Below, piece after piece: positions 6,395 to 42,651 of a stretch of DNA of 64,000 nt; within the stretch, counting starts at the first letter, position 1; each line of letters begins with the position of its first letter. The notes beneath the pieces were generated by a model. That model saw only the letters and a program-made list of their open reading frames with translations, was not told where the DNA came from and did no database searches. Origin of the DNA: Acidimicrobiia bacterium (GTDB lineage: Bacteria; Actinomycetota; Acidimicrobiia; Spongiisociales; SHLN01); contig JBFKDW010000002.1 of assembly GCA_041619515.1 (NCBI GenBank), positions 53,369 to 117,368 of the forward strand. Direction: 5' to 3'. Position numbers and translations under genes: made by a program.

Positions 6395-6408
6395 GGCAAA
6401 CGTTTGGC
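6395..6408. promoter_or_regulatory. LacI-type palindromic operator GGCAAACGTTTGGC in the divergent intergenic region between the HIBADH gene and the LacI gene
   Basis: Perfect core CAAACGTTTG centred on CG, AT-rich in a 68% GC background. Confidence 0.5.
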
Positions 6409-6465
6409 AACTCCTGCCCAATCGTGCCACGATGAGCACTGCCTATCAATGGAAAGACTCGAGCA

Positions 6466-7524
6466 GTGGCGGAACACATGCAACCATCGCCCCCGTCGGC
6501 GGGTGTGACACTCCACGACATCGCCGAAGAAGTCGGCGTGCATCCTTCGACCGTGTCGAGAGCACTCGATCCCTCCAAGGCGCACCGGGTGCGGGAAGCC
6601 ACCCGCGACCAGATCCAAGCGGTCGCCGCCCGGCTGGGCTATCGCCCCCACCTCGTGGCGCGCGGCCTGCAAACCGGGCGGACAGCCACCATCGCCTTTA
6701 TCGCCGCCGATCTCGGCAACACGTTCGTGACTCCCATCATCCATGGGCTGGCCGGGGCGATCCGGAATGCCGCCATGCTGCCGATCATCGCCGAAACCGA
6801 GGATGATCACGACACGTTCGCCGCCATCCTCGATCACATGCTGAGCCGGCGGGTCGACGGGATGGTGGTGGCCGCCGCCCGCACCGGCGACCGCGTGATT
6901 CTCGAATCGGCCGCCCGCATCGTCCCGATCGTCCTGGCCGGTAGACCGCTCGAAGACAGCCTCCTTCCGCATGTCGTCCACGACGACCGGCAGGGCGGCG
7001 AGATGGTCGCCGAGCACTTCCACCGGCTCGGCCACCGGACGGTGACACAGCTGCGGGGCCCCACCGACGTGGCGAACTTCCCCCGCCGGGCAGCCGGATT
7101 CAGTGACTACTGTCGCCGCGCCGGCATGGATGAGATCCTCGCAGCCGGCTGGGCGAGCCATCCCATCGCGTCCGAGGGTGAGCGGCTCATGCTTGAAGTC
7201 CTCGAAGGGGCCGATGAGCTTCCCAGCGCGATCTTCGCCCACAACGACCTCATGGCACTCGGTGCCCGTTCGGCACTACAGGATCGTGGCCTGCGGATCC
7301 CCGACGACGTGTCTCTGGTCGGGTACAACGACCTTCCCATGGTGGGCCGGCTGACTCCCCCGCTCACGACCATCCGGTACCCGAGCCTCGAAGTCGGCCG
7401 GGCCGCCGGTGAGCTCATCATCGAGCTGCTCGGCGGCGCCGAGTCCACAAGTCATAACCTCAGCCCGCAGCTCGTCGAGCGGGCATCGACTCGTGAGTTG
7501 GTGACGGCGCCCCACGACGCGTAG
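6466..7524 (+). CDS. LacI family transcriptional regulator
   Basis: N-terminal HTH VTLHDIAEEVGVHPSTVSRAL followed by a periplasmic-binding-protein-like sugar-binding domain. Confidence 0.85.
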   Translation: MAEHMQPSPPSAGVTLHDIAEEVGVHPSTVSRALDPSKAHRVREATRDQIQAVAARLGYRPHLVARGLQTGRTATIAFIAADLGNTFVTPIIHGLAGAIRNAAMLPIIAETEDDHDTFAAILDHMLSRRVDGMVVAAARTGDRVILESAARIVPIVLAGRPLEDSLLPHVVHDDRQGGEMVAEHFHRLGHRTVTQLRGPTDVANFPRRAAGFSDYCRRAGMDEILAAGWASHPIASEGERLMLEVLEGADELPSAIFAHNDLMALGARSALQDRGLRIPDDVSLVGYNDLPMVGRLTPPLTTIRYPSLEVGRAAGELIIELLGGAESTSHNLSPQLVERASTRELVTAPHDA

Positions 7525-7553
7525 ATTCAGGAAACGCCCGGCCGGGAGTTCCG

Positions 7554-9191
7554 ATGCCTTCGCTCGTACCAGACCTCGTGCTCCTCAACGGAAGGCTCGG
7601 CAGCGAGATCGCAGGCGATCCCCAACGCCAGGCGCTGGCGACGAGCAGGGATCGGATCGTCGCCGTGGGGTCCGATGACCTGATCCGACCCCTCATCGGA
7701 ACGAACACACGAGTCGTGGACGTGGGAGGCGCCCGCGTCATTCCTGGGCTCATCGACTCGCACATCCATGCGGTGCGGGCGGGCCTGACCTGGACCGAAC
7801 GTCTCGACTGGTCGGCTATGACGAGCTTGACCGAGGCCCTTGCGTCGATCACCGACCTCGCCGGGCGGGTGCCCAGGGGCTCATGGATTCTCGTAGTGGG
7901 TGGCTGGCATCCGGGCCGTTTTGCCGAGGGACGCGGGCCCAGCGTGGCCGAACTCGATGCGGCCGCACCCCATCATCCCGTGTACGTCCAGCTGCTGTAC
8001 GAGGAAGCATGGCTCAACCGCTCCGGCCTCGAGGCACTCGGAATGGGCAGGGAGGCTCCCGATCCGGAGGGCGGGGCCTTCGAGCGAGACACCGACGGCA
8101 CCCCGACGGGGAGGTTGCGCGGTCCCGGTGCCTTCGGCCTGTGCCTGCGGGCGTCCACCGATCCCTCGTTCGAGACCAGCGTCGCTTCGAGCCGGAGCTT
8201 CTTCCGCCACCTCAACGCCCTCGGCCTGACAGGAGTCATCGACACCGGCGGGCTCGGCATGACGCCGGAGGCCTACCGGCCGCTCTACGAGCTGTGGCGC
8301 CGGCGCCAGCTCACCCTCAAGACGCGCCTGTTCATCATGCCGAGCAGCCCGGGCGAGGAGGTCGCCCAGATCCGCGACTTCGTTCGGCACTTGCATCCAG
8401 GATTCGGCGACGAAATGCTCCGCCTCGTCGGCCTCGGCGAAATCCCACTCTTTGCCTGCTGGGACGCCGAGGGCGTCCGTCCGTTCCGCATGGCGCCGGA
8501 GGCCAAGAGAGATCTGAAGGAGGTCGTGTTGCTGCTCGTTCGCAACGGCTGGCCACTTCACCAGCACGCGATACTCGACTCGACCATCGGCGATGTGCTC
8601 GATGTGTGGGAGGAGGTTGCTGCCGAACACCCGATCGCCGATCTCAGGTTCGCCTTTGCCCACGCCGAGCCGATCAGCGATGTCAACCTGCAGCGGGTCA
8701 AGCGGCTGGAGGTGGGCATCGCGGTTCAGAGTCGGATGCCGTTTCGGGCGGCCGATTCGGCCCGGCTGTGGGGAGCCGAGGTTCTGGCCGAGGCACCGCC
8801 GCTGCGGCGCATTCTCGATTTGGGTATTCCCCTCGGCGCCGGCACCGACGCCACTGCGGTCAGTCCGTACAACCCGTGGTTCTCGCTGTGGTGGCTGGTA
8901 ACCGGCCTCGGCTTCGATGGAGCGCCGCCCCGCAGCGCCCGCCACCGCCTGTCCCGGGCCGAGGCATTGACCGCCTACACCCGCGGCAGTGCCTGGTTCT
9001 CGCATGATGATCACCGGCGCGGCAAGCTGGCCGCGGGGATGGCCGCCGACCTGGCGGTCCTGTCCGAGGACTACTTCACCGTCGACGCCGAAGCCATCCC
9101 ATCGCTGCGATCGGTGCTCACCGTCGTCGATGGCAAGATCGCCCACGCCGAGCCCGGCATGGATCTGGATGTGGAAGGAGACAAGGAATGA
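7554..9191 (+). CDS. Amidohydrolase 3 family metal-dependent hydrolase
   Basis: N-terminal DxHxH-type metal motif (GLIDSHIHAV), about 545 aa, YtcJ-like architecture. Confidence 0.75.
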   Translation: MPSLVPDLVLLNGRLGSEIAGDPQRQALATSRDRIVAVGSDDLIRPLIGTNTRVVDVGGARVIPGLIDSHIHAVRAGLTWTERLDWSAMTSLTEALASITDLAGRVPRGSWILVVGGWHPGRFAEGRGPSVAELDAAAPHHPVYVQLLYEEAWLNRSGLEALGMGREAPDPEGGAFERDTDGTPTGRLRGPGAFGLCLRASTDPSFETSVASSRSFFRHLNALGLTGVIDTGGLGMTPEAYRPLYELWRRRQLTLKTRLFIMPSSPGEEVAQIRDFVRHLHPGFGDEMLRLVGLGEIPLFACWDAEGVRPFRMAPEAKRDLKEVVLLLVRNGWPLHQHAILDSTIGDVLDVWEEVAAEHPIADLRFAFAHAEPISDVNLQRVKRLEVGIAVQSRMPFRAADSARLWGAEVLAEAPPLRRILDLGIPLGAGTDATAVSPYNPWFSLWWLVTGLGFDGAPPRSARHRLSRAEALTAYTRGSAWFSHDDHRRGKLAAGMAADLAVLSEDYFTVDAEAIPSLRSVLTVVDGKIAHAEPGMDLDVEGDKE

Positions 9192-9622
9192 GCCACCATC
9201 TCGAGCGAGTTGAGACGGCCGAGCACGATCCCCGATTCAACATGCCGTACACGCCGGCGATCAAGACGCGGGGAGGGACCACGGTGCACCTGGCCGGCGT
9301 CACTGCCGCGCCCGTGTACCACAGTCATCCTCATGTGGCATCCGAGTTCGATGACATCGCCCTCGACCCGGCAGACCAGGCAGACCAGGCCGTGCGGAAC
9401 CTCCAAGCCGTGCTCGAGGCCGCCGGGGGAAGCCTGGCCGACGTCGTGGAAGTGACGCGCTTCATCGTGGACATCGACCGCAATCAGGACGCCATCAACC
9501 GGACACTCGGACGAGCCTTTGGAGATCACCGGCCGGCGAGTACGACGGTCGAGGTCGTGCGGCTCGCGACCGACCCGCGTCTCGTACTCGAACTGAAGGC
9601 AGTCGCGGTCCTCCCCGACTGA
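9188..9622 (+). CDS. RidA (YjgF/TdcF) family reactive enamine/imine deaminase
   Basis: 144 aa with a RidA-like C-terminal segment (VEVTRFIVD...PASTTVEV). ATGA overlap with the upstream amidohydrolase. Confidence 0.75.
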   Translation: MSHHLERVETAEHDPRFNMPYTPAIKTRGGTTVHLAGVTAAPVYHSHPHVASEFDDIALDPADQADQAVRNLQAVLEAAGGSLADVVEVTRFIVDIDRNQDAINRTLGRAFGDHRPASTTVEVVRLATDPRLVLELKAVAVLPD

Positions 9623-9632: not shown

Positions 9633-10346
9633 TCAGCCGAGTAGACGCCGCAGCTTGTTGCCACCGTCGATGTCGAGGTTGATCCCGTTCACAGCCGGGT
9701 TCTCGAGGAGAAACCGGACTGCGTCGACGACGTGCTCGGTGAGCACCGGCCGGCCGGTCGGAGTGTGCGCCAGGACCGCGTCGCGGACCACATCGTTGTT
9801 GTCCCAGTAGGGGCTATCGAGCACGACGCCGGGGTGCACCGCGTTGATTCGAATGGGAGCGATATCGAGCGCCAGGGTGTTCAACATCTTCTCGACGCCG
9901 CCGTTGACGCTGGTCACGGTGGTCGAGCCGGGATACGGCCGCTCCTTGGCCAGGCCGCCAAACAACACAATGGCGGCGTCTTCACTCATCCGCCCGAGAA
10001 GCTGGTGGATCGTCTCGGGATAGCCGACCAACTTGAGCACCGCCAAGGCGGTGGCGCCCTCGATCTTGAAGTCCTTGACGTTGTTCTGATCACGCAGGAC
10101 GGCGGGAATCGCCAGATAGTCGACCGGGCCTTCGATTGGCTCGAGCCCGGCGGCAATACCAGCCGGCTGCGAAAGGTCGACCGCCAGTCCGTGGGTGTCA
10201 CCACCGATCCGTCCGGCCGCCTCGTCCGCCCGGCCCTGATCACGGCCCGAGACATAGACGCGACGCCCGGCGTCGGCGTAATGCCGGGCGACGGCCTCGC
10301 CGATGCCCGACGTCCCTCCGATCACAACAACTGCGCCTTTGGCCAT
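9633..10346 (-). CDS. SDR family oxidoreductase
   Basis: Motif GGTSGIGEAVA (TGxxxGxG) near the N-terminus. Start taken at MAKGAVVV (10346). Confidence 0.8.
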   Translation of the reverse strand: MAKGAVVVIGGTSGIGEAVARHYADAGRRVYVSGRDQGRADEAAGRIGGDTHGLAVDLSQPAGIAAGLEPIEGPVDYLAIPAVLRDQNNVKDFKIEGATALAVLKLVGYPETIHQLLGRMSEDAAIVLFGGLAKERPYPGSTTVTSVNGGVEKMLNTLALDIAPIRINAVHPGVVLDSPYWDNNDVVRDAVLAHTPTGRPVLTEHVVDAVRFLLENPAVNGINLDIDGGNKLRRLLG

Positions 10347-10421: not shown

Positions 10422-10435
10422 TGCAAGCGTTTGCC
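10422..10435. promoter_or_regulatory. LacI-type operator TGCAAGCGTTTGCC overlapping the -35 of the Liv-type uptake operon promoter
   Basis: Same motif family as the 17431 site. Lies about 75 nt upstream of the SBP start. Confidence 0.5.
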
Positions 10436-10459
10436 ATCTGGGCGGGCCGGTGCCACAAT
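10431..10459 (+). promoter_or_regulatory. Putative sigma-70-type promoter (TTGCCA, 17-nt spacer, CACAAT) for the SBP-livHMGF operon
   Basis: Hexamers and spacing read directly from the sequence. The operator overlaps the -35. Confidence 0.35.
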
Positions 10460-10510: not shown

Positions 10511-11830
10511 ATGAGCCGATCAGTACGTCGTCGTTTGCAGCTCTTGGCCGTATTGGCCGCCCTGGCGCTGGTCGCCACCGCCTGCGGTGGGGACGACTCG
10601 AGCGATACCACTGCCGGCCCCTCGGCCACCACGTCGACGACCGCCGGAGGCGGCGGCGACGCCACGACTACGACCGAGGCCATGAACGACGAGCCGATCG
10701 TGGTGGGCGGGTCCCTCGCCCTCACCGGGTTCCTCGCCCCCACTGCCGCCATTCACAAGGTTGCCGGTGACCTGTTCGTTGAGCGGCTCAACGCTTCCGG
10801 CGGCCTGCTGGGGCGGCCCGTCGTGTGGGACGTTCGCGACGACGAGTCGGTCCCCGACCAGGCGGCCTCTCTCTACGAACGGCTCATCAGCGAGGAAGGC
10901 GTCGACCTCATCCTCGGCCCGTACGGAACCGGCACCATCACGGCTGCGATGGCGGTCGCAGAGCGGGAGGGCTTCGTGTTCCCGCACCACACCGCCAGCC
11001 TCACCTACGCCTACACCTACGCCTGTCACTTCCCGACCTGGCCGGTCGGGCTCAAGACCAACATCAGCAATCCGAACATCGTGTACGACGCCCTCGAAGC
11101 GTCCGGCAACCCGCCCGAGACGATTGCGTTCGTGATGAACGAATTCCCGGGCACGCAGCTGATCGCGTACGGCCCGCCCGGCTCCGACGAGGGGGGAGCG
11201 ATCTCGGAAGCCAGAAAGCGCGGCTGGGACGTCGTCGCCGAGATCAACTTCCCCACCGGCACGAGTGATTGGGCTCCGATCGCCGCCCAGGTCGCCCAGG
11301 CAGACCCAGACTTCATCTATGTGGGGGCACTCGGAGTGGACGGCCCCAACCTGCTGACGGCGCTCGATGCCATCGGATACGCGCCGCGTGGGCACTTCTA
11401 CCAATGGCCGGCGCCGGGGCCGATGCTGGGCGCTCCCAACGCCGAGGGAGCCTTCTCGGTCGCCACCTTCGAACCCCATGCTCCATTCACCGACGACCCG
11501 GAAGCCGCTGAGATTTCTCAGCAGTTCGCCGAAGCTGCGGCCGCTGCCGGTCTGCCGTACACGGCCTTTGAGACCCAGGCCAGCGTCTCGTGGGTGGCGT
11601 GGGAAGTGCTGGTGGCCGGTGTCGAGGGTGCCGGGAGCCTCGATCAGGATGCCATCTGCGACTACCTGATCAACAACCCGATTGACACGCTGCTCGGAAC
11701 GATCGACTTCAATCCGGACGAGCAGAACTATTACGGCGACCTGTCGGTTGTGAAGCAAATCCAGAACGGTGAGTGGATCGTGGTCCATCCTGCGAATGTG
11801 GCCAAGCCGGGAACCGCTCCGATCCTGTAG
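10511..11830 (+). CDS. ABC transporter substrate-binding lipoprotein (LivJ/LivK-like, type I periplasmic binding protein)
   Basis: AGGAGG SD at 10501-10506, 4 nt before the ATG at 10511. Signal peptide with lipobox LVATAC, followed by a Thr/Gly-rich linker and a Leu/Ile/Val-binding-protein-like body. Confidence 0.8.
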   Translation: MSRSVRRRLQLLAVLAALALVATACGGDDSSDTTAGPSATTSTTAGGGGDATTTTEAMNDEPIVVGGSLALTGFLAPTAAIHKVAGDLFVERLNASGGLLGRPVVWDVRDDESVPDQAASLYERLISEEGVDLILGPYGTGTITAAMAVAEREGFVFPHHTASLTYAYTYACHFPTWPVGLKTNISNPNIVYDALEASGNPPETIAFVMNEFPGTQLIAYGPPGSDEGGAISEARKRGWDVVAEINFPTGTSDWAPIAAQVAQADPDFIYVGALGVDGPNLLTALDAIGYAPRGHFYQWPAPGPMLGAPNAEGAFSVATFEPHAPFTDDPEAAEISQQFAEAAAAAGLPYTAFETQASVSWVAWEVLVAGVEGAGSLDQDAICDYLINNPIDTLLGTIDFNPDEQNYYGDLSVVKQIQNGEWIVVHPANVAKPGTAPIL

Positions 11831-11897
11831 CCATTGTCGGTCATGAGGTGGGAGGGCGAACCGGCCCTCCCACCACGACTCCACAGGCAGTCATCCG

Positions 11898-12773
11898 ATG
11901 AATGAGGTTCTCAACCAGGCGATTGTCTCGGGCCTCCTCATCGGTGGCCTCTACGCGGTCATGTCGGTGGGGATCTCGCTCACCTGGGGTGTTCTCAAGA
12001 TCATCAACCTGGCGCATTTCTCGTTCGTGCTGCTGGGCGCCTATGTGACGTACGAGCTCACGACATCATTTGGCTGGGATCCGCTCCTGGCGCTCCTCGT
12101 GGTCATCCCGGGCGGGTTCCTCACCGGCATGATCATGCAGATCTTCTTCGAGCTGGCCAAGGTGGACGAGTTCCAGTCGCTCATCATCAGCTTCGGGATC
12201 TTCATCATCTTCCAGAGCATTACCCGGACCATCTGGTCGGCGGACTTTCGCCGGATCGGAGGTGATCTCAACCGGTACGAGTCGATGTCGTTCTTCATCG
12301 GCGACATCGCCGTGCAGGTGGCTCCGCTGCTCGCCTTTTGCGTAGCCGTGGCGATCGCCGTCGGCATGTCACTCCTGCTCGGCCGCACCTATTTCGGCAA
12401 GGCGGTGCGCGCCATCGTGGACGATCCTGAGATTGCCCGCGCCTACGGAATCGACGTTCGGAGGGTGGCGGTCATCCTGTCGGGCCTCGCCACCGCCTTC
12501 TCTGCTACCGCCGGAGTGTTCATCGCCACCTTCCAGTCCCTCACTCCCAACATGTCGTTCGGATGGTTCGGCATCGTGTTTCCGGTGGTCATCCTCGGTG
12601 GGCTGGGCAGCGCAGTCGGCGCCCTCGGAGCGGGAGTGATCGTCGGCGTGGCCGCCGGTGTTGCCACCACAGAGTGGGGGCCGCTCAGCGCCTCACTCGT
12701 GACCTTCCTCATTCTCATCGGCGCACTTCTCTTTCGTCCCCAGGGTCTGTTCACTCGGGAGAGCTCGACATGA
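11898..12773 (+). CDS. ABC transporter permease, LivH family
   Basis: LivH-like TM pattern (IINLAHFSFVLLGAY). Confidence 0.85.
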   Translation: MNEVLNQAIVSGLLIGGLYAVMSVGISLTWGVLKIINLAHFSFVLLGAYVTYELTTSFGWDPLLALLVVIPGGFLTGMIMQIFFELAKVDEFQSLIISFGIFIIFQSITRTIWSADFRRIGGDLNRYESMSFFIGDIAVQVAPLLAFCVAVAIAVGMSLLLGRTYFGKAVRAIVDDPEIARAYGIDVRRVAVILSGLATAFSATAGVFIATFQSLTPNMSFGWFGIVFPVVILGGLGSAVGALGAGVIVGVAAGVATTEWGPLSASLVTFLILIGALLFRPQGLFTRESST

Positions 12774-13927
12774 CGACACGGGGGAAGGCGCTCATCGGAT
12801 TCGCAGTGGTGGCAGTCGTCTTGAACCTGGTGCCGACGCTCGTCGAGGCTTTCGACGCCCCCGGCTTCTATGTGACCTTCATGTTCACCGCCTTCTTCTG
12901 GATCGCCCAGGCGGTGAGCTGGAACATCCTCACCGGCTACTCGGGCTATTTCTCTTTCGGCCAGGGCGCGTGGTTCGGGATCGGGGTATACACGACCGGA
13001 ATCCTGGCGGTAAAGCACGGGTGGCCGTTCCTGCTGGCGCTGCCCGTAGCCGGCGTCCTGGCGGGCCTCTCCGGCCTGGTCCTCGGCATGGTGGTGTTCC
13101 GACTTCGCAAGCTGGGTGGGGAGATATTCGCTCTCACCACGCTCGCCATCGCCTTCGTCCTGGCCTCGGTGGCCCGCCTGTATTCGTTCATCGACGGCGG
13201 CCGCGGGATCTTCATGACCGGCACACCGTTGCCGGAGTTCCTGGGCGATTTCCGCACGGCCATGTTCCGCATGACCTTTGTGGTGGCGTTTCTCACCGTG
13301 CTGACCGCGTACCTCCTCTACGAATCGCGCATCGGCTGGGGCCTGTTCGCGATTCGAGACGACGAGCCGGTCGCCCACGGACTCGGAGTACCCGTGTTCC
13401 GGTACAAGATGCTCGCCCTCGGCATCAATGCGCTTTTCGGCGGCCTCATGGGCGGGGTGTGGTCGCTGCAGATCGGGTTCGTCACCGTCGACGATGTCTT
13501 CAACATCCGGGTGCCGCTCTTCGTGATCCTCATGAGTGTCCTCGGCGGGATGAAACACTGGATGGGTCCGGTCGTCGGCGCAGTCATCATCTATTCGCTC
13601 ACCGACCGTCTCAACAGCGCCGGGCTCGAGGATCTCAACCAGGTCATCATCGGCGGGCTTCTCATCGTCCTCGTGCTGGCCGTCAGGGAGGGCATCTACC
13701 TGCGGCTTCGTGAAAGGTGGAAGCTCTCGCTGGCCGTCTTCGCCGCCGCCATGGCCATCTGGACGATCTTCGACCTGGCAACGTCGCTCATTTGGGACTT
13801 CTCCTATGCCTCCCTCATCACCGTCGGAGTGGCGCTGCTGCCGTCCCGCCGGCGCCCCGGCGAGAGCGAGCCGCCTTCCGCCGGCGTGCCGCAGACGGCG
13901 GCCGCCTCTGATCGGAGCCCGCCGTGA
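12770..13927 (+). CDS. ABC transporter permease, LivM family
   Basis: Motif WNILTGYSGYFSFGQGAWFGIGVY. ATG at 12770 overlaps the LivH stop (ATGA). Confidence 0.8.
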   Translation: MTTRGKALIGFAVVAVVLNLVPTLVEAFDAPGFYVTFMFTAFFWIAQAVSWNILTGYSGYFSFGQGAWFGIGVYTTGILAVKHGWPFLLALPVAGVLAGLSGLVLGMVVFRLRKLGGEIFALTTLAIAFVLASVARLYSFIDGGRGIFMTGTPLPEFLGDFRTAMFRMTFVVAFLTVLTAYLLYESRIGWGLFAIRDDEPVAHGLGVPVFRYKMLALGINALFGGLMGGVWSLQIGFVTVDDVFNIRVPLFVILMSVLGGMKHWMGPVVGAVIIYSLTDRLNSAGLEDLNQVIIGGLLIVLVLAVREGIYLRLRERWKLSLAVFAAAMAIWTIFDLATSLIWDFSYASLITVGVALLPSRRRPGESEPPSAGVPQTAAASDRSPP

Positions 13928-17401: not shown

Positions 17402-17431
17402 TTGACATCCGCCCACCCGCGGGCGCAAAAT
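17402..17431 (+). promoter_or_regulatory. Putative promoter (TTGACA, 18-nt spacer, CAAAAT) for the M24-E1alpha-E1beta operon
   Basis: Consensus -35 hexamer. The operator sits immediately downstream of and overlapping the -10. Confidence 0.4.
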
Positions 17432-17444
17432 GCAAACGTTTGCC
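17431..17444. promoter_or_regulatory. LacI-type operator TGCAAACGTTTGCC (perfect 12-bp palindrome GCAAACGTTTGC)
   Basis: Perfect dyad overlapping the -10/+1 of the adjacent promoter. Confidence 0.55.
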
Positions 17445-28070: not shown

Positions 28071-28074
28071 GCAC

Positions 28075-31156: not shown

Positions 31157-31171
31157 GGTAGCCTCCCAGCC

Positions 31172-32057: not shown

Positions 32058-32071
32058 TGCAAACGCTTGCA
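32058..32071. promoter_or_regulatory. LacI-type operator TGCAAACGCTTGCA upstream of the amidohydrolase-CUT2 operon
   Basis: 14-bp near-perfect dyad of the same family, about 225 nt upstream of the first CDS. Confidence 0.5.
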
Positions 32072-32296
32072 TCTTTCTCTAAGATGCGCCGACGTCGGAG
32101 ACCAGGGAGGAGGACGGACCGCGTTGCTGCACATATTCACGAAGCAGTGGGGAGCGTGCCCGTCCGGGAGGGCCCACGCCATAGGTCTTCACCGGGCCGC
32201 CGCCGGAAACCTGCGTTCGGCGGCAGACGCGGCCGACAGGGAGGTCGCGTGGGGCCAGAAGACCATGTCGATGCCGCTCGATTCCGGTGGTGATTC

Positions 32297-34656: not shown

Positions 34657-34741
34657 GGCGCGACACCGGAGGCACCGATCAATCGACAAAACAGGAAGGC
34701 ACCAAAGACACGGGCGATCCCGCCCATGAGGAGAGAATGAC

Positions 34742-36091: not shown

Positions 36092-37686
36092 TGAGCAACA
36101 GCAAGACCGTTGGAGAGTCGACGGCCGAGGACCTGGTCCTCGAACTGCGCGGTGTCTCCCGCCAGTTCGGGGCGGTGCGGGCGCTGACCAACGTCAGCTT
36201 CGACTGCCGGGCCGGGGAGGTTCACGCCCTCGTCGGCGAGAACGGCTCGGGCAAGTCGACTCTCCTCGGTATTGCCAGTGGGTTTGTCGACCCCGATCTG
36301 GGCGAGATCCGGATCGGGGGCAAACCCTTGCGAACCGACTCCCCGGCGCTGGCCCGCAAGCTCGGCTTGGCGATGGCCTATCAGGACCTGTCGCTGATTC
36401 AGGCCGAGCCGGTGAAGAACAACCTGTTCCTGGCCGCCCCGCCCGAGAAGCGGCCCCCTTACTGGAACCGGAAGCGGTGGGCGCGCAGGCTCCTCGGCGA
36501 GTTCGACCTCGACCTCGAGTTGTTCCCCGATTCCCCGGCAGCGTTCCTCACCCTCGCCGAGCGGCAGCTGTTCGAGGTCGCCAAGGCGCTCGTCTCCGAT
36601 CCCAAGGTGCTGCTCCTCGACGAGCCCACCACTGCCCTCGGCCCCGACGAGGTGGAGGATCTTCATCGCACCATCTCGGCCTGTCGCGATCGTGGTGTCG
36701 GGGTCGTCTACGTGAGCCACCGGCTCCCCGAGGTCCTGGAGATAGCCGATCGGATCACTGTGCTGCGGGACGGCGAGACCCGTGGCACATTCGATGCCGG
36801 GAAGACCACCGAGCACGAACTGGTCGACCTGATCGTCGGCCGGCCGTTCGAGGGAGCTTTCCCCCCGGCCACCCTTCCCGAAGGCGAGCGCCGTGAGGTG
36901 CTGGTCGTCGACGCGCTCCAGGGTCAATCCTTTGGCCCGGTCAGCTTCACTCTGCAGAGTGGAGAGGTGGTAGGGATCGCCGGTGCCGAAGGCAACGGGC
37001 AGCCGCAGCTCTTCGACACCCTCGCCGGGCGGACGCCTCCACGGGCCGGCCGCGTCACCTGCAACGGCAAGGAAATGACGCTGATATCCACCCACGAGGC
37101 AATCGGGGCGGGAGTCATGATGCTCCCGGGCGACCGCAAGCGGGAAGCGCTCATGACCGTTCTCGGCGTGAGAGTGAATGCGACTTTGCAGTCGATCCGC
37201 CAGTTCAGCGCCTTCAATTTCCTGCGGCGCCGGGCGGAACGGCGGGCGGTCGAGAATCTCGTCGAGGAGCTCGAAATCCGCACCCCGTCCCTGGAACAGC
37301 CCGTGGAGTTCCTCTCCGGGGGCAACCAGCAGAAGGTCTCCGTGTCGCGCACGTTCCTGAAGAAGCCCTCGGTGATTCTTGCCTACGAGCCCACTCAGGG
37401 CGTCGATGTCGGCGCTCGATTCGATATCTATCAGGCCCTGCGAGCGAGAAGCAACGAGGGGGCCACCATCCTGGTCAAATCCAGCGACCCGCTCGAGCTG
37501 GCCGGCCTGTGTGATCGGGTCCTGGTCTTGTCACGAGGCCAGATCATCGAGGAGATCCCCGGTGACGAGCTCACCGAGGTTCGGATCGTCGAGGCCATCG
37601 TCCGAGGTCCCGGGCTGTCCAAGGCCGGCCGATCGCCGCTCGGCGTCGCAATGCCGAAGGCTCCGACCGAAACGGATGCATCTTGA
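36091..37686 (+). CDS. CUT2-family ABC transporter ATP-binding protein (tandem duplicated ATPase, RbsA/MglA-like)
   Basis: Two nucleotide-binding domains. First Walker A is GENGSGKST. 531 aa. Confidence 0.85.
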   Translation: MSNSKTVGESTAEDLVLELRGVSRQFGAVRALTNVSFDCRAGEVHALVGENGSGKSTLLGIASGFVDPDLGEIRIGGKPLRTDSPALARKLGLAMAYQDLSLIQAEPVKNNLFLAAPPEKRPPYWNRKRWARRLLGEFDLDLELFPDSPAAFLTLAERQLFEVAKALVSDPKVLLLDEPTTALGPDEVEDLHRTISACRDRGVGVVYVSHRLPEVLEIADRITVLRDGETRGTFDAGKTTEHELVDLIVGRPFEGAFPPATLPEGERREVLVVDALQGQSFGPVSFTLQSGEVVGIAGAEGNGQPQLFDTLAGRTPPRAGRVTCNGKEMTLISTHEAIGAGVMMLPGDRKREALMTVLGVRVNATLQSIRQFSAFNFLRRRAERRAVENLVEELEIRTPSLEQPVEFLSGGNQQKVSVSRTFLKKPSVILAYEPTQGVDVGARFDIYQALRARSNEGATILVKSSDPLELAGLCDRVLVLSRGQIIEEIPGDELTEVRIVEAIVRGPGLSKAGRSPLGVAMPKAPTETDAS

Positions 37687-40154
37687 CGAGCGAATACACC
37701 GCACACGGAGCCATCGACCGAGCCCGTCAATTGGTCCGGAAGATCCTCCGTAACGCGCGCGATAAGAACAAGTGGCGGAAGGTGGTCAAAGTCCGGTTGT
37801 GGATGCCCATCGCGCTGCAGATGGTGCTCATCCTCGGCGTCCTCTGGTACACCAACACTCGCTTCGACGGATTCCTCAACGCCGCCAACCTCACCAGCGT
37901 CCTCATCATCGCCATTCCCCTGGCGATAGCGGCGTTTGCCCAAACCCACGCGCTCCTGGTCGGCTATCTGGACCTGTCGGTCGGAGCCATGATCAGCCTC
38001 GGGGTGGTGATCGCCTCATTCCTCATCGTTCCCGATTCATCCACACCGGAAATCCTCCTCGGCATCGGTGCCATCCTCCTGTGCGGGGCGGGCGTGGGAC
38101 TGGTCAACGCCACGCTGGTGCGCGGGGTGAAGATCCCATCGATCATCGCCACTCTGGCGACCTTGAGCATTCTCGACGGCATCTCCCTCACGCTGCGCGA
38201 GACGCCGAGCGGCACCATCGATCCGGACTTCGTCTCCTGGCTCAAGGCCAGTGTCGGGCCGGTTCCGGTTGCCTTCATCGCCGTGGCGGTGGGCGCAATC
38301 CTGCTCGACTACTGGCTCCATGCCAGCCGCTCCGGTCTCAAGGTCCGGGCCACCGGTTTCGACGAGCGATCGGCCAAGCGCAGCGGCGTCTGGACCAACT
38401 GGATACGCGTGCGCGCCCTGCTGCTGTCGGCCATGTTGGCTGCGATCGCCTCTTTCTTCGTCATGTCCCGGTCGCCGGTCGGAAACGCCCAGATCGGCTC
38501 CAGCTTCGCGCTCAACAGCATCACGGCAGCGGTCCTCGGTGGTGCCTCCTTCCTGGGCGGGCGGGCCACCTTCATTGGTGCACTGACTGCCTCTGTGCTT
38601 CTGGCGCTGATCATCACCGTTCTGCCGTTCCTCGGCCTCACCCCCGACCACGGCCTGATGATCATCGGCATTCTGGTGCTGCTCGGGATCATCCTCTTCC
38701 AGGTGGGCGACATCAAGGAGCTGGTGAAGCGAAATTTCCGACGAGCGCGGCGTCTGGTGCAGGGCAGCAACGTGGCAGCCCAGGCGCGCCTGCCGGAGTT
38801 GTATCCGGCGGGCAACGACTTCAGTGTGGTGCCCTCCGGGAGAAAGCTCATCCGGGGTGGCGTGGTGCTCTCCCTGGATCCGGACGTGGGGGATCTCTCC
38901 GAGGGTGACGTTCTCATCGAAGGGGACAAGATCGTCGCGGTCGGACCCGGCCTGGCAGCCGGCGACGCCGAGTTGATCGACGCGTCGGGGATGATCGTCA
39001 TGCCCGGATTCGTCGACAGCCACCGCCACATCTGGGAAGGCATCCTCCGCAACATCGGGACCGATGTTCCGCTCGAAGGCAGGACCAGCTACATCTCGTT
39101 CATCCTCCGCACGCTGGCGCCGGTGTACCGACCGGAGGACGTCTACGCCGGGAACATGGTTTCCGCCCTCGGTGCCATCGATGCGGGCGTCACCACCCTC
39201 CTCGATTGGTCGCATATTCAGTCCTCACCGAGCCACACCGATGCCGGGATCCAGGCCCTGCGGGATTCCGGCCTGCGAGCCGTGTTCGCCTACGGATTTC
39301 CGTGGTGGGGGAAATGGGAAGAGCGCCAGCCCAGTTGGTTCGTCAGGGCTGCCAGCGAACACTTCTCCAGCAAGGACCAGATGCTCACCCTGGCGCTGGC
39401 GGCACCCGGTCCCGAATTCACCGACTTCGAGGTGGCTCGTGATCATTGGAAGCTCGCCCGCGAGACCGGGGCGCGCATCACTGCTCATGTCGGGGTCGGA
39501 ACCTATGGCCTCGACGCCAAGATCCAACGGTTCGGCGAGGCCGGCCTCCTCGGCCCGGACACGACCTACATCCACTGCACGAGTCTCAACGACACCGAGA
39601 TCCAGATGGTTGTCGACACCGGCGGCACGGTTTCGCTGGCCTCTCCCGTGGAAATGATGATGGGTCACGGTATGCCGCCCATCCAGAAGTTCCTCGACCG
39701 GGGGCTCCGACCCAGTCTCAGCATCGACGTCGAAACCAACGTGCCGAGCGACATGTTCAATCAGATGAGGTCGGTCCTGGCGCTGCAGCGGGCGCTGGTA
39801 TCCGACGACGGGAAGCCGCCGGTAGCTCCCCGGGAGGTTTTGGGCTGGGCCACCGTTGAGGGGGCGCGTGCCAACGGTCTCGTGGACAAGGTCGGAAGCC
39901 TTACTCCCGGCAAGCAAGCCGACCTCATCATGCTGCGCTCCGATCGAATCAACGTCACTCCGCTCAATGACCCGGCCACGGCGGTGGTGGCGAGCATGGA
40001 CACCAGCAATGTGGACAGCGTCCTGATTGCGGGGAGGGTCATGAAACGACACGGGAAGCTTCTCCACGTCGATTGGCCCGCCGTGAGGCGGATGGCGCTC
40101 GAGTCCCGGGACTACGTCGTCGCCAAGTCGGGTTTCAAGCTCCCGAAGATCTGA
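37683..40154 (+). CDS. Fusion protein: CUT2 ABC permease (N-terminal, about 350 aa) plus amidohydrolase paralogous to 32297..33613 (C-terminal, about 440 aa). TTG start at 37683 or ATG at 37803
   Basis: Single uninterrupted 823-codon frame. Permease TM region ends near KRNFRRARRL. A linker of about 30 aa follows, then the amidohydrolase domain with GFVDSHRHIW. Confidence 0.7.
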   Translation: MTSEYTAHGAIDRARQLVRKILRNARDKNKWRKVVKVRLWMPIALQMVLILGVLWYTNTRFDGFLNAANLTSVLIIAIPLAIAAFAQTHALLVGYLDLSVGAMISLGVVIASFLIVPDSSTPEILLGIGAILLCGAGVGLVNATLVRGVKIPSIIATLATLSILDGISLTLRETPSGTIDPDFVSWLKASVGPVPVAFIAVAVGAILLDYWLHASRSGLKVRATGFDERSAKRSGVWTNWIRVRALLLSAMLAAIASFFVMSRSPVGNAQIGSSFALNSITAAVLGGASFLGGRATFIGALTASVLLALIITVLPFLGLTPDHGLMIIGILVLLGIILFQVGDIKELVKRNFRRARRLVQGSNVAAQARLPELYPAGNDFSVVPSGRKLIRGGVVLSLDPDVGDLSEGDVLIEGDKIVAVGPGLAAGDAELIDASGMIVMPGFVDSHRHIWEGILRNIGTDVPLEGRTSYISFILRTLAPVYRPEDVYAGNMVSALGAIDAGVTTLLDWSHIQSSPSHTDAGIQALRDSGLRAVFAYGFPWWGKWEERQPSWFVRAASEHFSSKDQMLTLALAAPGPEFTDFEVARDHWKLARETGARITAHVGVGTYGLDAKIQRFGEAGLLGPDTTYIHCTSLNDTEIQMVVDTGGTVSLASPVEMMMGHGMPPIQKFLDRGLRPSLSIDVETNVPSDMFNQMRSVLALQRALVSDDGKPPVAPREVLGWATVEGARANGLVDKVGSLTPGKQADLIMLRSDRINVTPLNDPATAVVASMDTSNVDSVLIAGRVMKRHGKLLHVDWPAVRRMALESRDYVVAKSGFKLPKI

Positions 40155-40167: not shown

Positions 40168-41307
40168 CTAGCCGAGCTTCTCCCTGATCCAGGCGAACGA
40201 CGCCGGCCCCCACTCCGGCTGATACTTGAAGGCGCAATGGCCGGCGTCGGCGTACACACGGGCTTCCCGTCCCGTCGGCGGCCCATGCTCGAACATGAAG
40301 TAGATGTTGCCGATCGGCGCCAGGTGGTCGAGCTTGCCGTTGATCATGAGCACCGGCTGGGTGATGTTGTCGAGAACCCCGAGCTCCGACAAGGCCCACT
40401 TCGAGAAGACCTCCGCCTCCTTCTCCCGCGACCAGGCAGGGAATGAGGGCGGCCCCCCGGGCTCACCGAAGACGAACGTTGCCCGCTTGTTGCGCGCCTC
40501 GACGAAGGCATCGAGCTCTTCATCGGTCATGCGGTAGCCGAACGGATGGCCGGCAATGGCGACGACCGCCCGCACCTTTTCCGGGTACGTGCCCGCCAGT
40601 TGCATGACCGAATACCCGCCCCGGCTGATGCCGAAGGCGGCGATCCTGGCAGCGTCGACCTCAGGCCGTCCGGCCAGGAAATCGACGGCCGCCATCCATG
40701 CTTTCACCGAGTCGGGATCCCACGGGAACGGGTTCTCCCCGGTTCCCGGACCATCCATCACGAGCGACGCCAGGCCATGCTCGAGCGCAAGCTCCCCCGC
40801 CCAGCCCCGGTCTTCCTTGAACACGTCGGCGCCACACATGATGAGCACCGCCGGGGCGGGATCGTCGGCCCCCGCACCCTGTGGTGCTCGGAAGTGGGCC
40901 CTGATCGGTCGCCCGTCGCATTCGACCTCCACGACCTCCAAGGGCGGATCGAGATACCGGCAGGCCTTGCGATAGGCCTCGGCACACTGCGCGCTGATCT
41001 CGGCTTTGCGAGGCGTGATCTCCCCCGGGAATCGCCCGATGGCGTAGTAGGTCTTGGCCTGCAAGTACTCCCGGCGGGCGCCTTCCCCGTCTCCGGCCGC
41101 GTCGAGCCGATCACCCGCCTCTTCGTGACGGCGTCCGGCTGCCCGCCATACCGGAACCCACTTGTCATCGGTGGTTGCCTCCAGCGTCGCCACGATCGTC
41201 TCGAGCTCGGAAAGGTCGTCGATCATCGATAACCAGCGCCGGTAGAAGCCCCCGTGCTCGACGACGAACGGGTCTTCGCTGGGCGTGAAGCCGAGTGCGG
41301 TGCTCAT
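40168..41307 (-). CDS. Alpha/beta hydrolase (FrsA/dienelactone-hydrolase-like esterase)
   Basis: Nucleophile elbow GISRGG and a C-terminal His. 379 aa. Confidence 0.7.
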   Translation of the reverse strand: MSTALGFTPSEDPFVVEHGGFYRRWLSMIDDLSELETIVATLEATTDDKWVPVWRAAGRRHEEAGDRLDAAGDGEGARREYLQAKTYYAIGRFPGEITPRKAEISAQCAEAYRKACRYLDPPLEVVEVECDGRPIRAHFRAPQGAGADDPAPAVLIMCGADVFKEDRGWAGELALEHGLASLVMDGPGTGENPFPWDPDSVKAWMAAVDFLAGRPEVDAARIAAFGISRGGYSVMQLAGTYPEKVRAVVAIAGHPFGYRMTDEELDAFVEARNKRATFVFGEPGGPPSFPAWSREKEAEVFSKWALSELGVLDNITQPVLMINGKLDHLAPIGNIYFMFEHGPPTGREARVYADAGHCAFKYQPEWGPASFAWIREKLG

Positions 41308-42533
41308 GAAACCTCCCGTGAGCGCTGCGCCAGCCTACGCCCCCGTGTCGAGGGAGAAGCCGCCGCGGCCATCCGGGCGTCGAGCCCACGGTCGGGCTCG
41401 AGGATGTAGACACCGCCGTTGACCCGGTCGGTCACATAGACGAGGTGGTTCTCACCCACCCACACGTCGTTCACCTGAACCGCGGCTTGATCCGGTGGGC
41501 AGGCGGGAATGTACGAGGCGATTTCGACCGGGGCGACCGGATCGGCCAGGTCGTAGACGCGCAAGCCGGCATTGAAATACGTTGCGAACACCAGCTCGGT
41601 GCTGCGATAGCTGCCGGGGCGATTCTCGTGCAGGCAGTGCGCTCCGAACCGAAGCCCCCGATCGCAATAATCACCCACCGGCGGCGGACAGATTGCCACC
41701 ACCCGGGGATTCCGTTCGTCCGCAACGTCCACCACTCGCACCATGTGGGGGGGCCCCTCGCACCCATCCGTCGTGGCTTCGTCGGTCACCACGACGAGAT
41801 CCCGGCCGGCGAGGGGGAGGCACGTGTGGGTCTCGCCACCCTCATCCCAGTTGAGGTGCGCCACGACCGCCGGCTCTGTCACGTTGGCGATATCGAGAAT
41901 CACCAAGCCCCCGTCCCAGAGCCCGACGTAGGCGCGGTCGCCGGCGACCATGGCATGGTGGGTGCTCCAATTCTCACCGGCCGGCCAGGCCGGGGTTTCG
42001 CCGCCAGCCGTCCACTGTCCGGGCCACCACCACCGCCCCACCTCGGTCGGCTGCGACGGGTCGTCCAGATCGATGATGATCCAGATCCGGCCCGTGAAGC
42101 CGTCGGGTGTGGCCGAGAGATAGGCATACCGCCCTCCTTCGTACACGATCCGATGCACACCGCGACCCGTCGACGCCCAGAACCCCACCTGCCGAGGATC
42201 GAAGGGGTCCGACAGGTCGTAGACGGCGAGGCCGGCGGACCACGGCAGGTCGCTGCGAAATCGCTCGTGGTTGATGAGCAGGAGCCCGTCGGCCACCTGC
42301 ACCTTGTGCGTATGGCTGTTGGGGGGCGCCGGCCACTGTCGCACCACCTGCGGAGAGCTCGGGTCGGCCACATCGAGGATCGAGGTACCCATGCCGCTGG
42401 TCCCGAAGTGCCCGACGTAGAGCACGTCGCCCGTTCGCATGAGCTGCATGCCGTCGCCGAATCCGCCCAGGTCCGAGCTTCCGACGAGTCGAAATCCCTC
42501 TGCTTCTTCGCCGTGCATAGGGCTTGTTACCAC
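41304..42533 (-). CDS. LVIVD-repeat / beta-propeller protein (start GTG at 42533 or ATG at 42518)
   Basis: Repeated hydrophobic-VxD segments (YVTDRVNGGVYIL, LVVVTDE, MVRVVDVAD). Confidence 0.5.
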   Translation of the reverse strand: MVTSPMHGEEAEGFRLVGSSDLGGFGDGMQLMRTGDVLYVGHFGTSGMGTSILDVADPSSPQVVRQWPAPPNSHTHKVQVADGLLLINHERFRSDLPWSAGLAVYDLSDPFDPRQVGFWASTGRGVHRIVYEGGRYAYLSATPDGFTGRIWIIIDLDDPSQPTEVGRWWWPGQWTAGGETPAWPAGENWSTHHAMVAGDRAYVGLWDGGLVILDIANVTEPAVVAHLNWDEGGETHTCLPLAGRDLVVVTDEATTDGCEGPPHMVRVVDVADERNPRVVAICPPPVGDYCDRGLRFGAHCLHENRPGSYRSTELVFATYFNAGLRVYDLADPVAPVEIASYIPACPPDQAAVQVNDVWVGENHLVYVTDRVNGGVYILEPDRGLDARMAAAASPSTRGRRLAQRSREVS

Positions 42534-42637
42534 GCCGCTCGGTCCGCCGGAAACCGACGCCCTCCCCGCCCCGGCCGACGAACATGCCTGGCTTCCAATT
42601 GACAGGGCTGATGGTTTTCCGTAAGTTCACTCGGACG

Positions 42638-42651
42638 TGCAATCGTTTGCG
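42638..42651. promoter_or_regulatory. LacI-type operator TGCAATCGTTTGCG upstream of the peptide ABC operon
   Basis: Same motif family. Lies about 70 nt upstream of the SBP start in a divergent intergenic region. Confidence 0.45.

Follow-up and report, generated by a model that had tools for sequence, protein, structure and literature searches.

A CG-centered palindrome marks a putative LacI-family regulon of eight transcription units in an Acidimicrobiia bacterium

Introduction

Across 1,303 reconstructed LacI regulons, operators typically have a central CG and lie mostly upstream of their targets, 72% of the regulons are autoregulated, and sites are typically found in non-coding DNA 30–140 nt upstream of start codons (Ravcheev et al. 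2014, PMC4052901). The 12-bp core of the motif described here also occurs in the experimentally defined operators of PurR and MalR (PMC3159470, PMC4451989).

The window analyzed is a 64-kb stretch of DNA from an Acidimicrobiia bacterium, lying on a contig of at least 120.8 kb, and our motif scan of the source genome covered these 64 kb. An earlier note on this DNA had reported five copies of a palindrome and tied them to a LacI-family gene nearby. We estimate a probability of roughly 0.8 that the five palindromes are operators of a LacI-family repressor, which is most probably the product of the gene at 6466–7524, a reading made from sequence comparison and adopted because the sites are nonrandomly placed, the protein has the features of the family, the sites overlap promoters, and the motif is conserved together with both regulator and targets.

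Results

The consensus TGCAAWCGWTTGCA is a 14-bp palindrome, and all five copies (6395, 10422, 17431, 32058, and 42638) were found where the earlier note had placed them (Table 1). The literal pattern proposed there, TGCAADCGYTTGCV, holds for the last four sites but not for the one at 6395 (GGCAAACGTTTGGC), which is off at positions 1 and 13; the central 10 bases of this site are perfect, and it has one mismatch to the 12-mer core GCAAACGTTTGC. The site at 32058 matches on both strands because it is a near-perfect palindrome, and the pattern has no match in 100 dinucleotide shuffles. A weight matrix built from related-genome sites alone, with the window's own sites left out of training, puts exactly these five on top in the window, at 18.8–24.5 bits, with a gap of 8 bits to the next-best match (10.3 bits, in coding sequence); shuffled sequence gives 0.14 matches of at least 15 bits.

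Table 1. Candidate operators and the transcription units beside them (positions in the 64-kb window)
Feature	Position	Strand	Remarks
HIBADH-family dehydrogenase (5465–6346) and PNPOx-like protein (5001–5405)	5001–6346	-	Divergent from LacI
Candidate operator O1, GGCAAACGTTTGGC	6395–6408	.	20.5 bits; 119-bp gap between divergent HIBADH1 and LacI
LacI-family regulator, 352 aa	6466–7524	+	First gene of LacI-amidohydrolase-RidA unit
Amidohydro_3 hydrolase (7554–9191) and RidA-family protein (9188–9622)	7554–9622	+	Pfam; 3' of LacI
Short-chain dehydrogenase (SDR)	9633–10346	-	Pfam; divergent from Liv-type operon
Candidate operator O2, TGCAAGCGTTTGCC	10422–10435	.	Mid-gap between divergent SDR (ATG 10346, minus) and Liv-type binding protein (ATG 10511)
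Liv-type (HAAT) ABC importer	10511–15352	+	Binding protein, two permeases, two ATPases
Candidate operator O3, TGCAAACGTTTGCC	17431–17444	.	24.5 bits, best in window; ends 21 nt before M24 ATG
M24-E1 operon	17466–20744	+	M24 creatinase/DddP-like (17466–18719), E1 alpha (18688–19782), E1 beta (19779–20744)
Candidate operator O4, TGCAAACGCTTGCA	32058–32071	.	225 nt upstream of amidohydrolase GTG (32297)
Amidohydrolase-CUT2 operon	32297–40154	+	Cytosine-deaminase-like amidohydrolase first
LVIVD-repeat protein (41304–42533) and alpha/beta hydrolase (40168–41307)	40168–42533	-	Divergent from OppA
Candidate operator O5, TGCAATCGTTTGCG	42638–42651	.	Between LVIVD gene (start 42533, minus) and OppA (ATG 42722)
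Opp/Dpp-type ABC importer, OppABCDF	42722–49200	+	O5 upstream of OppA

Intergenic DNA makes up 6.4% of the window and holds all five sites, which lie beside or over core promoter elements, in agreement with the promoter-region placement first claimed for them. Equal genome-wide frequency of the motif within genes had been raised as a possible objection; within the 64 kb, strong matches are intergenic only, and the best coding match is the one of 10.3 bits. The sites had also been described as AT-rich dyads in 68% GC DNA, but the window is 66.0% GC, and at about 50% GC the sites are AT-rich only in relative terms. Matches to the core with two mismatches, at 6321, 36320, and 49814, lie in coding sequence and are at chance level (1.15 expected). 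As additional members we rejected a match at 16442 (half-site TGCAATCG), which falls inside the bicupin B coding region (ATG 16410), and matches near 3486, 21306, and 27923, which score at most 3 bits and are indistinguishable from chance.

Among 105 distinct sites, the motif is an even palindrome of the half-sites TGCAAWC and GWTTGCA, with the C and G at its center invariant. This central CG, together with a 12-bp core as in the PurR and MalR operators, agrees with the LacI/GalR operator architecture that had been suggested. Information is limited to the 14 bp, and the uninformative flanks indicate that the motif is not a repeat element.

The candidate regulator has a complete LacI-family domain set (HTH_LacI plus Peripla_BP_1/3) in Pfam, comprising a LacI-type helix-turn-helix at residues 15–61 (PF00356, 44.8 bits versus a cut-off of 27) and a C-terminal effector domain like type-I periplasmic binding proteins (Peripla_BP_3, 123 bits; Peripla_BP_1, 83 bits). 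Its best PDB match and closest solved structure is CcpA, and alignment to that protein (1RZR) pairs the hinge YRPHLVARGL with YRPNAVARGL, ARGL being identical, and places a 2-aa insertion after the recognition helix. In the CcpA and PurR structures, the leucine of the hinge helix works as a lever, inserting into the central CG step. The regulator reaches no NCBIfam equivalog cut-off, scoring 139 bits versus 501 for PurR (NF007979) and 135 bits versus 442 for CcpA (TIGR01481). Pfam found no other regulator domain among the approximately 56 genes of the window, and there is no further LacI-like ORF in the 64 kb; the gene is thus, as had been stated, the only LacI-family regulator in the window and adjoins one site, O1.

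O1 lies 48 nt from the HIBADH1 start (6346, minus) and 57 nt from that of LacI (6466), and the same 14-mer occupies the same position in related locus L001, whose LacI is 75% identical. O2 is 75 nt from the start codon on either side and includes the predicted -35 hexamer TTGCCA of a promoter-like TTGCCA-17-CACAAT at 10431–10459 (promoter scan), as the earlier note had proposed for the Liv-type operon; the SDR/LivK gap of L001–L004 also holds a site. O3 had been described as overlapping the -10 of its operon, yet it abuts the hexamer rather than sitting over it: in the promoter TTGACA-18-CAAAAT (17402–17431), the last base of the predicted -10 is the first base of the site, which spans the likely transcription start. 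Nine loci show the same promoter-then-operator layout ahead of their M24 orthologues. O5 covers approximately +4 to +17 of a TTGACA-17-TAAGTT promoter at 42599–42627. Two of the four promoter assignments, those for O4 and O5, are by-eye readings below the scan threshold.

For O4, a possible -10 hexamer, TAAGAT, was read by eye at 32080–32085, and the promoter scan gave no consensus promoter in this region. In L134, the same 14-mer precedes the amidohydrolase orthologue by 155 nt; in L132, the distance is 198 nt and the sequence GGCAAACGATTGCA. The site is the main conserved block of the amidohydrolase leader. Four of the sites are 21–104 nt from a start codon; O4, at 225 nt, is outside the usual range, which counts against it. 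A small ORF within this 225-nt leader was considered and rejected, as its translations do not have the look of coding sequence and the window and L134 share no conserved peptide. An Rfam scan of the whole window returned no matches, and the long leader therefore fits no described riboswitch.

Sites in related loci were placed by homology-defined gene boundaries; a crude GC3-based gene caller was discarded, as it extends ORFs too far upstream and classed even the sites of the window as coding. Comparative footprinting, which had been suggested for this motif, found it kept upstream of orthologues of every target, covering all eight flanking transcription units and more than 60 independent loci with the motif at orthologous positions, over a background of 0.05 sites per kb in 307 kb of related DNA. 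The motif adjoins the LacI-orthologue gene in 20 of 29 loci (background, 0.08 sites per kb), lending support to the autoregulation suggested earlier; close orthologue loci L002–L004 have no site upstream of LacI, and distant LacI genes have other motif variants. For OppA orthologues, 39 of 44 loci contain a site scoring 13 bits or more between -220 and +70 relative to the OppA start. An upstream site is likewise found for HIBADH1 orthologues in L001–L003, immediately upstream of SDR orthologues in L001–L006, and at the LVIVD-hydrolase pair in L099, L101, L104, L112, L113, and L134, while the Liv-type importer and its operator are both kept in L001–L004. Nitriliruptoraceae keep the order TTGACA, -10 hexamer, operator ahead of M24, and L134 and L132 keep it ahead of OppA and the amidohydrolase.

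Gene order also connects the units. The LacI and Amidohydro_3 genes are 30 nt apart, and the Amidohydro_3 and RidA genes overlap; the former is syntenic with LacI in L001, the latter in L002–L004. The M24-E1 operon lacks both E2 and E3 and is, of all neighbors of the LacI orthologue, the one conserved most widely (L010, L012, L014–L016, L018–L021, L025, L040, L068), and in Nitriliruptoraceae HIBADH1 is the final gene of the M24 operon. The amidohydrolase-CUT2 order (amidohydrolase, CUT2-type permease, binding protein, double ATPase, permease-amidohydrolase fusion) is the same in L132 and L134, and in L133 it is joined to M24-E1, with bicupin-M24-E1a-E1b-amidohydrolase-permease forming a single gene string. 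Opp adjoins amidohydrolase-CUT2 in L134 and M24 in L120, so that among relatives the target operons are fused or side by side in varying order. With the motif upstream of every unit's orthologues and units merged in relatives, these data support the proposal that three ABC importers and M24-E1 form one regulon. Each testable element of the earlier note's interpretation is, overall, supported.

Discussion

Which protein would occupy the sites is complicated by a second LacI clade. In some relatives, a paralogous LacI gene adjoins the LVIVD-hydrolase pair or HIBADH2 with a near-identical motif, which leaves the assignment of sites to proteins, O5 included, uncertain. It is an unlikely but reasonable alternative that the sites are LacI-family operators of which some or all, especially O5 between LVIVD and Opp, are bound by a paralogue encoded outside the window, or that two paralogues share the operators and integrate two signals. 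In L112 and L113, a paralogue (31–33% identical) is divergent from the LVIVD-hydrolase pair with TACAAACGATTGCR between them and once more upstream of OppA; in L005 and L006, orthologue and paralogue lie 5 kb apart with similar sites flanking each, and the recognition helices of the two clades are near-identical (STVSRAL versus STASRAL). The 64-kb window, however, has no second LacI gene, O5 has the same half-site, TGCAA, as the other four sites, the Opp genes of L134 are contiguous with an amidohydrolase-CUT2 operon of the kind that L133 has fused to M24-E1, and the orthologue clade has M24-E1 as its hallmark neighbor. In some lineages, an operator shared with the paralogous LacI may provide two-signal control.

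An alternative in which a global catabolite-control regulator of the CcpA type recognizes the motif, with the five sites a local sample of a genome-wide set, appears very improbable. The sites are confined to a single 36-kb catabolic island next to the regulator, the same few target gene families recur with the motif across phyla, the background in related DNA is only 0.05 sites per kb, and the CcpA equivalog score is far under its cut-off, even though the motif is similar to cre boxes, no PDB entry matches the regulator better than CcpA, and eight transcription units with three transporter types are large for a local LacI regulon. That the recurrence stems from chance, from the AT-richer composition of promoters, or from a dispersed repeat is effectively refuted: intergenic DNA is AT-richer and weak sub-threshold matches are slightly commoner there, but the empty shuffles, the 8-bit gap, the flanks devoid of information, and the conservation at orthologous positions all speak against it.

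We therefore return to the five palindromes as operators of the window's own LacI-family repressor. Given sites that overlap or adjoin core promoter elements, the mechanism is likely to be autoregulated repression that an inducer relieves, in which we infer both binding and the direction of regulation (induction, not co-repression). A repressor dimer would bind each palindrome through its helix-turn-helix, with the hinge-helix leucine entering the central CG step. The operators would lie over the -35 (O2, probably O4), right after the -10 (O3), or just past the start site (O5), positions from which we propose that binding blocks RNA polymerase. The repressor would thereby keep off eight transcription units, approximately 27 genes in all: LacI-amidohydrolase-RidA, HIBADH-PNPOx, SDR, the Liv-type ABC importer, M24-E1alpha-E1beta, the amidohydrolase-CUT2 ABC operon, LVIVD-hydrolase, and the Opp-type ABC importer. 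A small-molecule inducer, either an imported substrate or an early breakdown product, would bind the C-terminal sugar-binding-type domain and free the repressor.

As to this inducer, our best guess, made with low confidence, is an organic compound that is small and either nitrogenous or of hydroxy-acid type, and the nitrogen-containing effector presumed earlier is plausible. Neither the regulator nor M24, the amidohydrolases, or the binding proteins match an NCBIfam equivalog; PDB searches with the three binding proteins were uninformative, and among solved structures M24 comes nearest to DddP DMSP lyases, with a score of only 79 bits. No publication on the M24-E1-LacI cluster turned up in a literature search. 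Neighboring GFO, Zn-ADH, creatininase, PfkB, and aldolase genes are reminiscent of the Thermotoga inositol operon; the family assignments were not confirmed by literature, and we make no claim from this likeness. A more speculative and somewhat doubtful reading is that the regulon serves an undescribed non-carbohydrate, probably nitrogen-containing, catabolic pathway under a dedicated LacI clade. Its core would be the M24 creatinase/DddP-like hydrolase, the stand-alone TPP-dependent E1 alpha/beta without E2/E3, an SSADH-like aldehyde dehydrogenase, and the HIBADH-like dehydrogenase, and the clade would range over Actinomycetota and a few Chloroflexota and Dormibacterota. If true, this clade would extend the handful of LacI-family regulators whose effectors are not sugars.

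On the sequence evidence, then, this is a real but ordinary repressor-operator regulon of textbook LacI type, with uptake and breakdown genes as predicted targets. It provides a well-supported regulatory link across eight transcription units in an uncultured Acidimicrobiia-like genome, and points to M24-E1alpha/beta, three ABC importer families, and several amidohydrolases as one functional system, whose conservation extends from Acidimicrobiia to Nitriliruptoria, Mycobacterium, and Amycolatopsis. The orthologous system also occurs in cultured organisms, candidates being Amycolatopsis acididurans K13G38 (L040), Gulosibacter sp. 10 (L025), and Microbacterium sp. E-13 (L024); the linkage offers a handle for finding the substrate, and the repressor could act as a biosensor in an effector screen.

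Comparison with known LacI-family systems

Like the local catabolic regulons of the LacI/GalR family (PMC4052901), the window combines an even palindrome with a central CG, intergenic upstream sites, predicted autoregulation, and ABC importers and catabolic enzymes clustered with the regulator gene. Unlike in those regulons, the target enzymes are not recognizable sugar-utilization genes, including instead the M24 creatinase/DddP-like hydrolase, stand-alone E1 alpha/beta, cytosine-deaminase-like amidohydrolases, and RidA; three ABC families are recruited, with an MFS transporter in Amycolatopsis and Mycobacterium; and the regulator falls under every curated equivalog cut-off and has the 2-residue insertion after its recognition helix.

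The core GCAAACGTTTGC is identical to that of the Escherichia coli PUR box, as in purM (TCGCAAACGTTTGCTT) and xanP (TGGCAAACGTTTGCTT), and PurR belongs to the small group of LacI-family proteins whose effector is not a sugar but a nitrogen heterocycle. Nonetheless, the window's protein is no PurR orthologue (139 versus 501 bits), and its predicted targets are importers, hydrolases, and dehydrogenases rather than genes of purine/nucleotide biosynthesis; PurR needs a co-repressor, whereas inducer logic seems more likely for the catabolic genes here. The window's motif also resembles the MalR operators of Streptococcus pneumoniae (CGCAAACGTTTGCG; dexB site, GGCAAACGCTTGCA), and its regulator shares the ARGL hinge with Bacillus CcpA, the cre-binding protein of the closest solved structure, without being a CcpA orthologue (135 versus 442 bits). 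The effectors differ, being maltose for MalR and HPr-Ser-P for CcpA, and the regulons are unrelated; the operator likeness to MalR and CcpA is one of shared family architecture, not of orthology.

Predicted operator sites and gene content of the window

The earlier note had read five palindromic 14-bp sites (predicted operators O1–O5, at 6395, 10422, 17431, 32058, and 42638) as the candidate regulon of a LacI-family regulator. These sites are non-random, conserved, and promoter-proximal, and they are found together with a bona fide LacI-family gene, which confirms the observation and lends support to the LacI-regulon interpretation. A literal search of the 64-kb window with TGCAADCGYTTGCV matched only at 10422, 17431, 32058, and 42638, with no match in 100 dinucleotide-preserving shuffles; the pattern as first stated fails at 6395, where the sequence GGCAAACGTTTGGC departs from it at positions 1 and 13 and has one mismatch relative to the core GCAAACGTTTGC. 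Because circularity was to be avoided, we trained a weight matrix solely on sites from other genomes before running it on the window. O1–O5 scored 18.8–24.5 bits and were the top five matches; the sixth-best reached 10.3 bits, and shuffled windows yielded 0.14 matches of at least 15 bits. All five lie in intergenic DNA, which makes up 6.4% of the window, whereas the sixth match and almost all others fall in coding sequence. The GC content of the window is 66.0%, not the 68% given previously. Within the first codons of HIBADH1, 74 bp from O1, GCCACCGTTTGC (6321–6332) matches the right half-site perfectly and could be an auxiliary half-operator, but its score of only 5 bits is inside chance expectation.

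The regulator is, as claimed, the only LacI-like ORF that tblastn found in the window, and no other regulator domains were detected among the roughly 56 genes scanned.

Gene and operator map of the window, with operator-to-start-codon gaps
Feature	Position	Strand	Basis	Remarks
OYE/NADH:flavin oxidoreductase-like ORF	1850–3331	+		Unusually long (493 aa); family match at residues 59–281 only; at left edge of window, after two Liv-type permease genes
SSADH-like aldehyde dehydrogenase	3550–5004		Pfam/NCBIfam
PNPOx-like protein	5001–5405	-	Pfam/NCBIfam
HIBADH-family dehydrogenase (HIBADH1)	5465–6346	-	Pfam/NCBIfam
O1	6395			57 and 48 nt
LacI-family regulator	6466–7524	+	Pfam/NCBIfam
Amidohydro_3 hydrolase	7554–9191		Pfam/NCBIfam
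RidA-family protein	9188–9622		Pfam/NCBIfam
Short-chain dehydrogenase (SDR)	9633–10346	-	Pfam/NCBIfam
O2	10422			75 and 75 nt
Liv-type ABC importer	10511–15352		Pfam/NCBIfam
Bicupin	15357–16262	-	Pfam/NCBIfam
Bicupin	16410–17300	+	Pfam/NCBIfam
O3	17431			21 nt
M24 creatinase/DddP-like hydrolase, E1 alpha, E1 beta	17466–20744		Pfam/NCBIfam
Dehydrogenases, two creatininase-family proteins, PfkB kinase, class II aldolase, GFO/IDH/MocA, FAA hydrolase-family protein (FAH), F420-dependent luciferase-like monooxygenase (LLM)	21434–32020		Pfam/NCBIfam	No operator in window scan
O4	32058			225 nt
Cytosine-deaminase-like amidohydrolase and CUT2-type ABC system, ending in permease-amidohydrolase fusion	32297–40154		Pfam/NCBIfam
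Permease-amidohydrolase fusion	37683–40154	+		One 823-aa ORF
Alpha/beta hydrolase and LVIVD-repeat protein	40168–42533	-	Pfam/NCBIfam
O5	42638			70 and 104 nt
Opp/Dpp-type ABC system	42722–49200		Pfam/NCBIfam
BaeRF-like protein	57607–58737	-		376 aa; similar to baeRF (bacterial archaeo-eukaryotic release-factor-like) families 7 and 3, E about 1e-47; unrelated to the regulon

Predicted operators relative to promoters

A consensus promoter scan bears out the claimed -35 overlap at O2, where the -35 hexamer of TTGCCA-17-CACAAT (10431–10459) lies within the operator. The -10 overlap claimed for O3 comes down to a single base: the last base of CAAAAT in TTGACA-18-CAAAAT (17402–17431) is the first base of O3, while the rest of the hexamer precedes it. 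Since that hexamer ends at 17431, O3 lies over the expected start site. The scan threshold was unmet at O4 and O5; by our own reading, TTGACA (42599–42604) and TAAGTT (42622–42627), separated by a 17-nt spacer, may form the O5 promoter, placing O5 at about +4 to +17, and a TAAGAT -10 at 32080–32085 would put O4 over the -35 position. With this arrangement, a dimeric repressor would occlude RNA polymerase at eight promoters, its own included, and an inducer from the imported substrate would free it.

O4 is unusually distant from its gene. Its leader (32072–32296) is 225 nt long, with 155–198 nt in relatives (L134 7860–8000; L132 2703–2886), and conservation there is limited to the operator and, about 35 nt further downstream, an SD-like GGGAGGAGG. 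No Rfam match was found in this leader. An upstream ORF stop overlaps the amidohydrolase start codon in the window and L134 (GTGA and TTGA), and the upstream-ORF peptides show no conservation between the two.

Conservation of the motif beside the regulator and its predicted targets

Using the LacI protein as query against one genome per species, we found orthologues but no genome identical to the window. An orthologue with 75% identity comes from L001, a genome bin of Acidimicrobiaceae, whose 14-mers at the HIBADH/LacI and SDR/LivK gaps are those of the window. Orthologues follow at 60–63% in Acidimicrobiia bins and at 39–48% in Nitriliruptoraceae, in other Actinomycetes (Mycobacterium, Amycolatopsis, Microbacterium, Gulosibacter, and Arthrobacter), and in Chloroflexota and Dormibacterota bins; the search also brought up many LacI proteins of Bacillota with less than 35% identity. 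In 20 of 29 orthologue loci, a site scoring 13 bits or more lies no further than 350 bp upstream of the LacI gene or directly downstream of it, vs 0.08 sites per kb elsewhere in those loci, supporting the autoregulation suggested in the earlier note. Among distant LacI loci, 7 of 51 pass, with other variants such as GGAAAACGTTTTCC.

Because the motif also recurs upstream of target orthologues, there is comparative support for all eight transcription units around the five operators. Sites lie in the SDR/LivK gap in L001–L004, immediately ahead of SDR in L005 and L006, and upstream of HIBADH1 in L001–L003. In Nitriliruptoraceae, an operon of M24, E1 alpha, E1 beta, aldehyde dehydrogenase, and HIBADH (63–74% identity to the window proteins) flanks the LacI orthologue. 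M24 is preceded by a site in L010, L012, L016, L018, L019, L020, L021, L025, L040, and L068, typically 5–10 nt past a TTGACA-17-TATGGT-type promoter; the exceptions, L133, L120, and L014, have M24 inside a longer string of genes. OppA, used as query in an independent metagenome scan, hit 51 loci. Upstream sequence was usable in 44 of them, and 39 of these 44 carry a site between -220 and +70 relative to the OppA start (background 0.05 sites per kb in 307 kb); the five without are the most diverged. For the LVIVD-hydrolase unit, a separate upstream site is present in L099, L101, L104, L112, and L113; ahead of the amidohydrolase-CUT2 operon, L132 has a site at a distance of 198 nt and L134 has the identical TGCAAACGCTTGCA at 155 nt.

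A dispersed repeat can be excluded as the source of the motif: across 105 distinct related sites, information is limited to 14 positions, TGCAAWC|GWTTGCA, and the flanks are uninformative. A second LacI clade (L005 142–1131, L006 5861–6850, L112 460–1467, L113 662–1705), with 31–33% identity to the window regulator and 64–91% among its members, adjoins the LVIVD-hydrolase (L112, L113) or HIBADH2 (L005, L006), and its predicted motif, TACAAACGATTGCR, is near-identical to that of the window; its recognition helix reads STASRAL vs STVSRAL in the window regulator clade. In L005 and L006 it lies 5 kb from the window-regulator orthologue, and two regulators may act there on common operators. The 64-kb window has no second-clade gene.

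A probable shared pathway

The claim of one regulon gains from the merging of its modules. L133 has one uninterrupted string of bicupin, M24, E1 alpha, E1 beta, amidohydrolase, and CUT2 permease; in L134, OppABCDF is divergent from LVIVD, directly followed by the amidohydrolase-CUT2 operon; and in L120, M24 follows the Opp genes. An MFS protein with the motif in front takes the transporter role in Amycolatopsis and Mycobacterium. Such reshuffling would be expected if the modules serve a single pathway and answer to a single control system. The creatininase/GFO block at 22100–31156 (two creatininase-family proteins, PfkB kinase, class II aldolase, Zn-ADH, 2-hydroxyacid dehydrogenase, GFO/IDH/MocA, HIBADH-like protein, and FAH) probably belongs to the same pathway; in L081, L082, L088, L099, and L118, a 2-hydroxyacid dehydrogenase-creatininase-GFO operon is divergent to OppA, with operator(s) in common.

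The fusion ORF joins a CUT2-type permease (residues 70–334) to a cytosine-deaminase-like amidohydrolase (387–817; NCBIfam PRK08204, 527 bits). It is real and conserved, since it is also called on an unrelated JGI contig (L134 13371–15842), and the joining of membrane permease and hydrolase suggests that hydrolysis is coupled to transport. The E1 alpha/beta pair closely resembles pyruvate dehydrogenase E1, and its beta subunit scores above an NCBIfam subfamily cut-off. It is always paired with the M24 hydrolase (window; L010, L012, L016, L018, L020, L021), in Nitriliruptoraceae also with SSADH-like and HIBADH-like genes; the M24-E1 operon has no E2 or E3, and we found no published description of its enzymology.

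The earlier note presumed a single nitrogen-containing effector. Several target families favor a nitrogenous substrate, namely two cytosine/guanine-deaminase-like amidohydrolases, Amidohydro_3, RidA, and the creatinase/DddP-like M24. A hydroxy- or oxo-acid would likewise fit, given the conserved SSADH-like and HIBADH-like core and the lactonase and alpha-hydroxyacid dehydrogenase of the Mycobacterium locus. NCBIfam, PDB, and literature searches gave no match settling the regulon's substrate or effector.

Comparison with known LacI-family systems

The regulator combines a LacI helix-turn-helix with a type-I binding-protein fold and aligns full-length with CcpA, PurR, RbsR, and LacI structures. 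It has the hinge VARGL in common with CcpA and, in alignment to it, a two-residue insertion past the recognition helix; it falls below every curated NCBIfam equivalog cut-off, the best being the RbsR model (193 bits vs 382). Of 1,303 LacI regulons in a published survey, 1,173 have a central CG and 72% are autoregulated; over 75% of the sites lie 30–140 nt upstream of start codons, less than 1% lie in coding DNA, and the only non-carbohydrate effectors are nucleobases, nucleosides, and HPr (PMC4052901). The 12-bp core of the motif is shared with the ChIP-defined purM and xanP sites of E. coli PurR (PMC3159470) and footprinted operators of S. pneumoniae MalR (PMC4451989), so the operator tells the family and not the effector. 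This class of repressor and operator is well known; the present member is uncharacterized, and its interest lies mainly in the pathway that it delineates.
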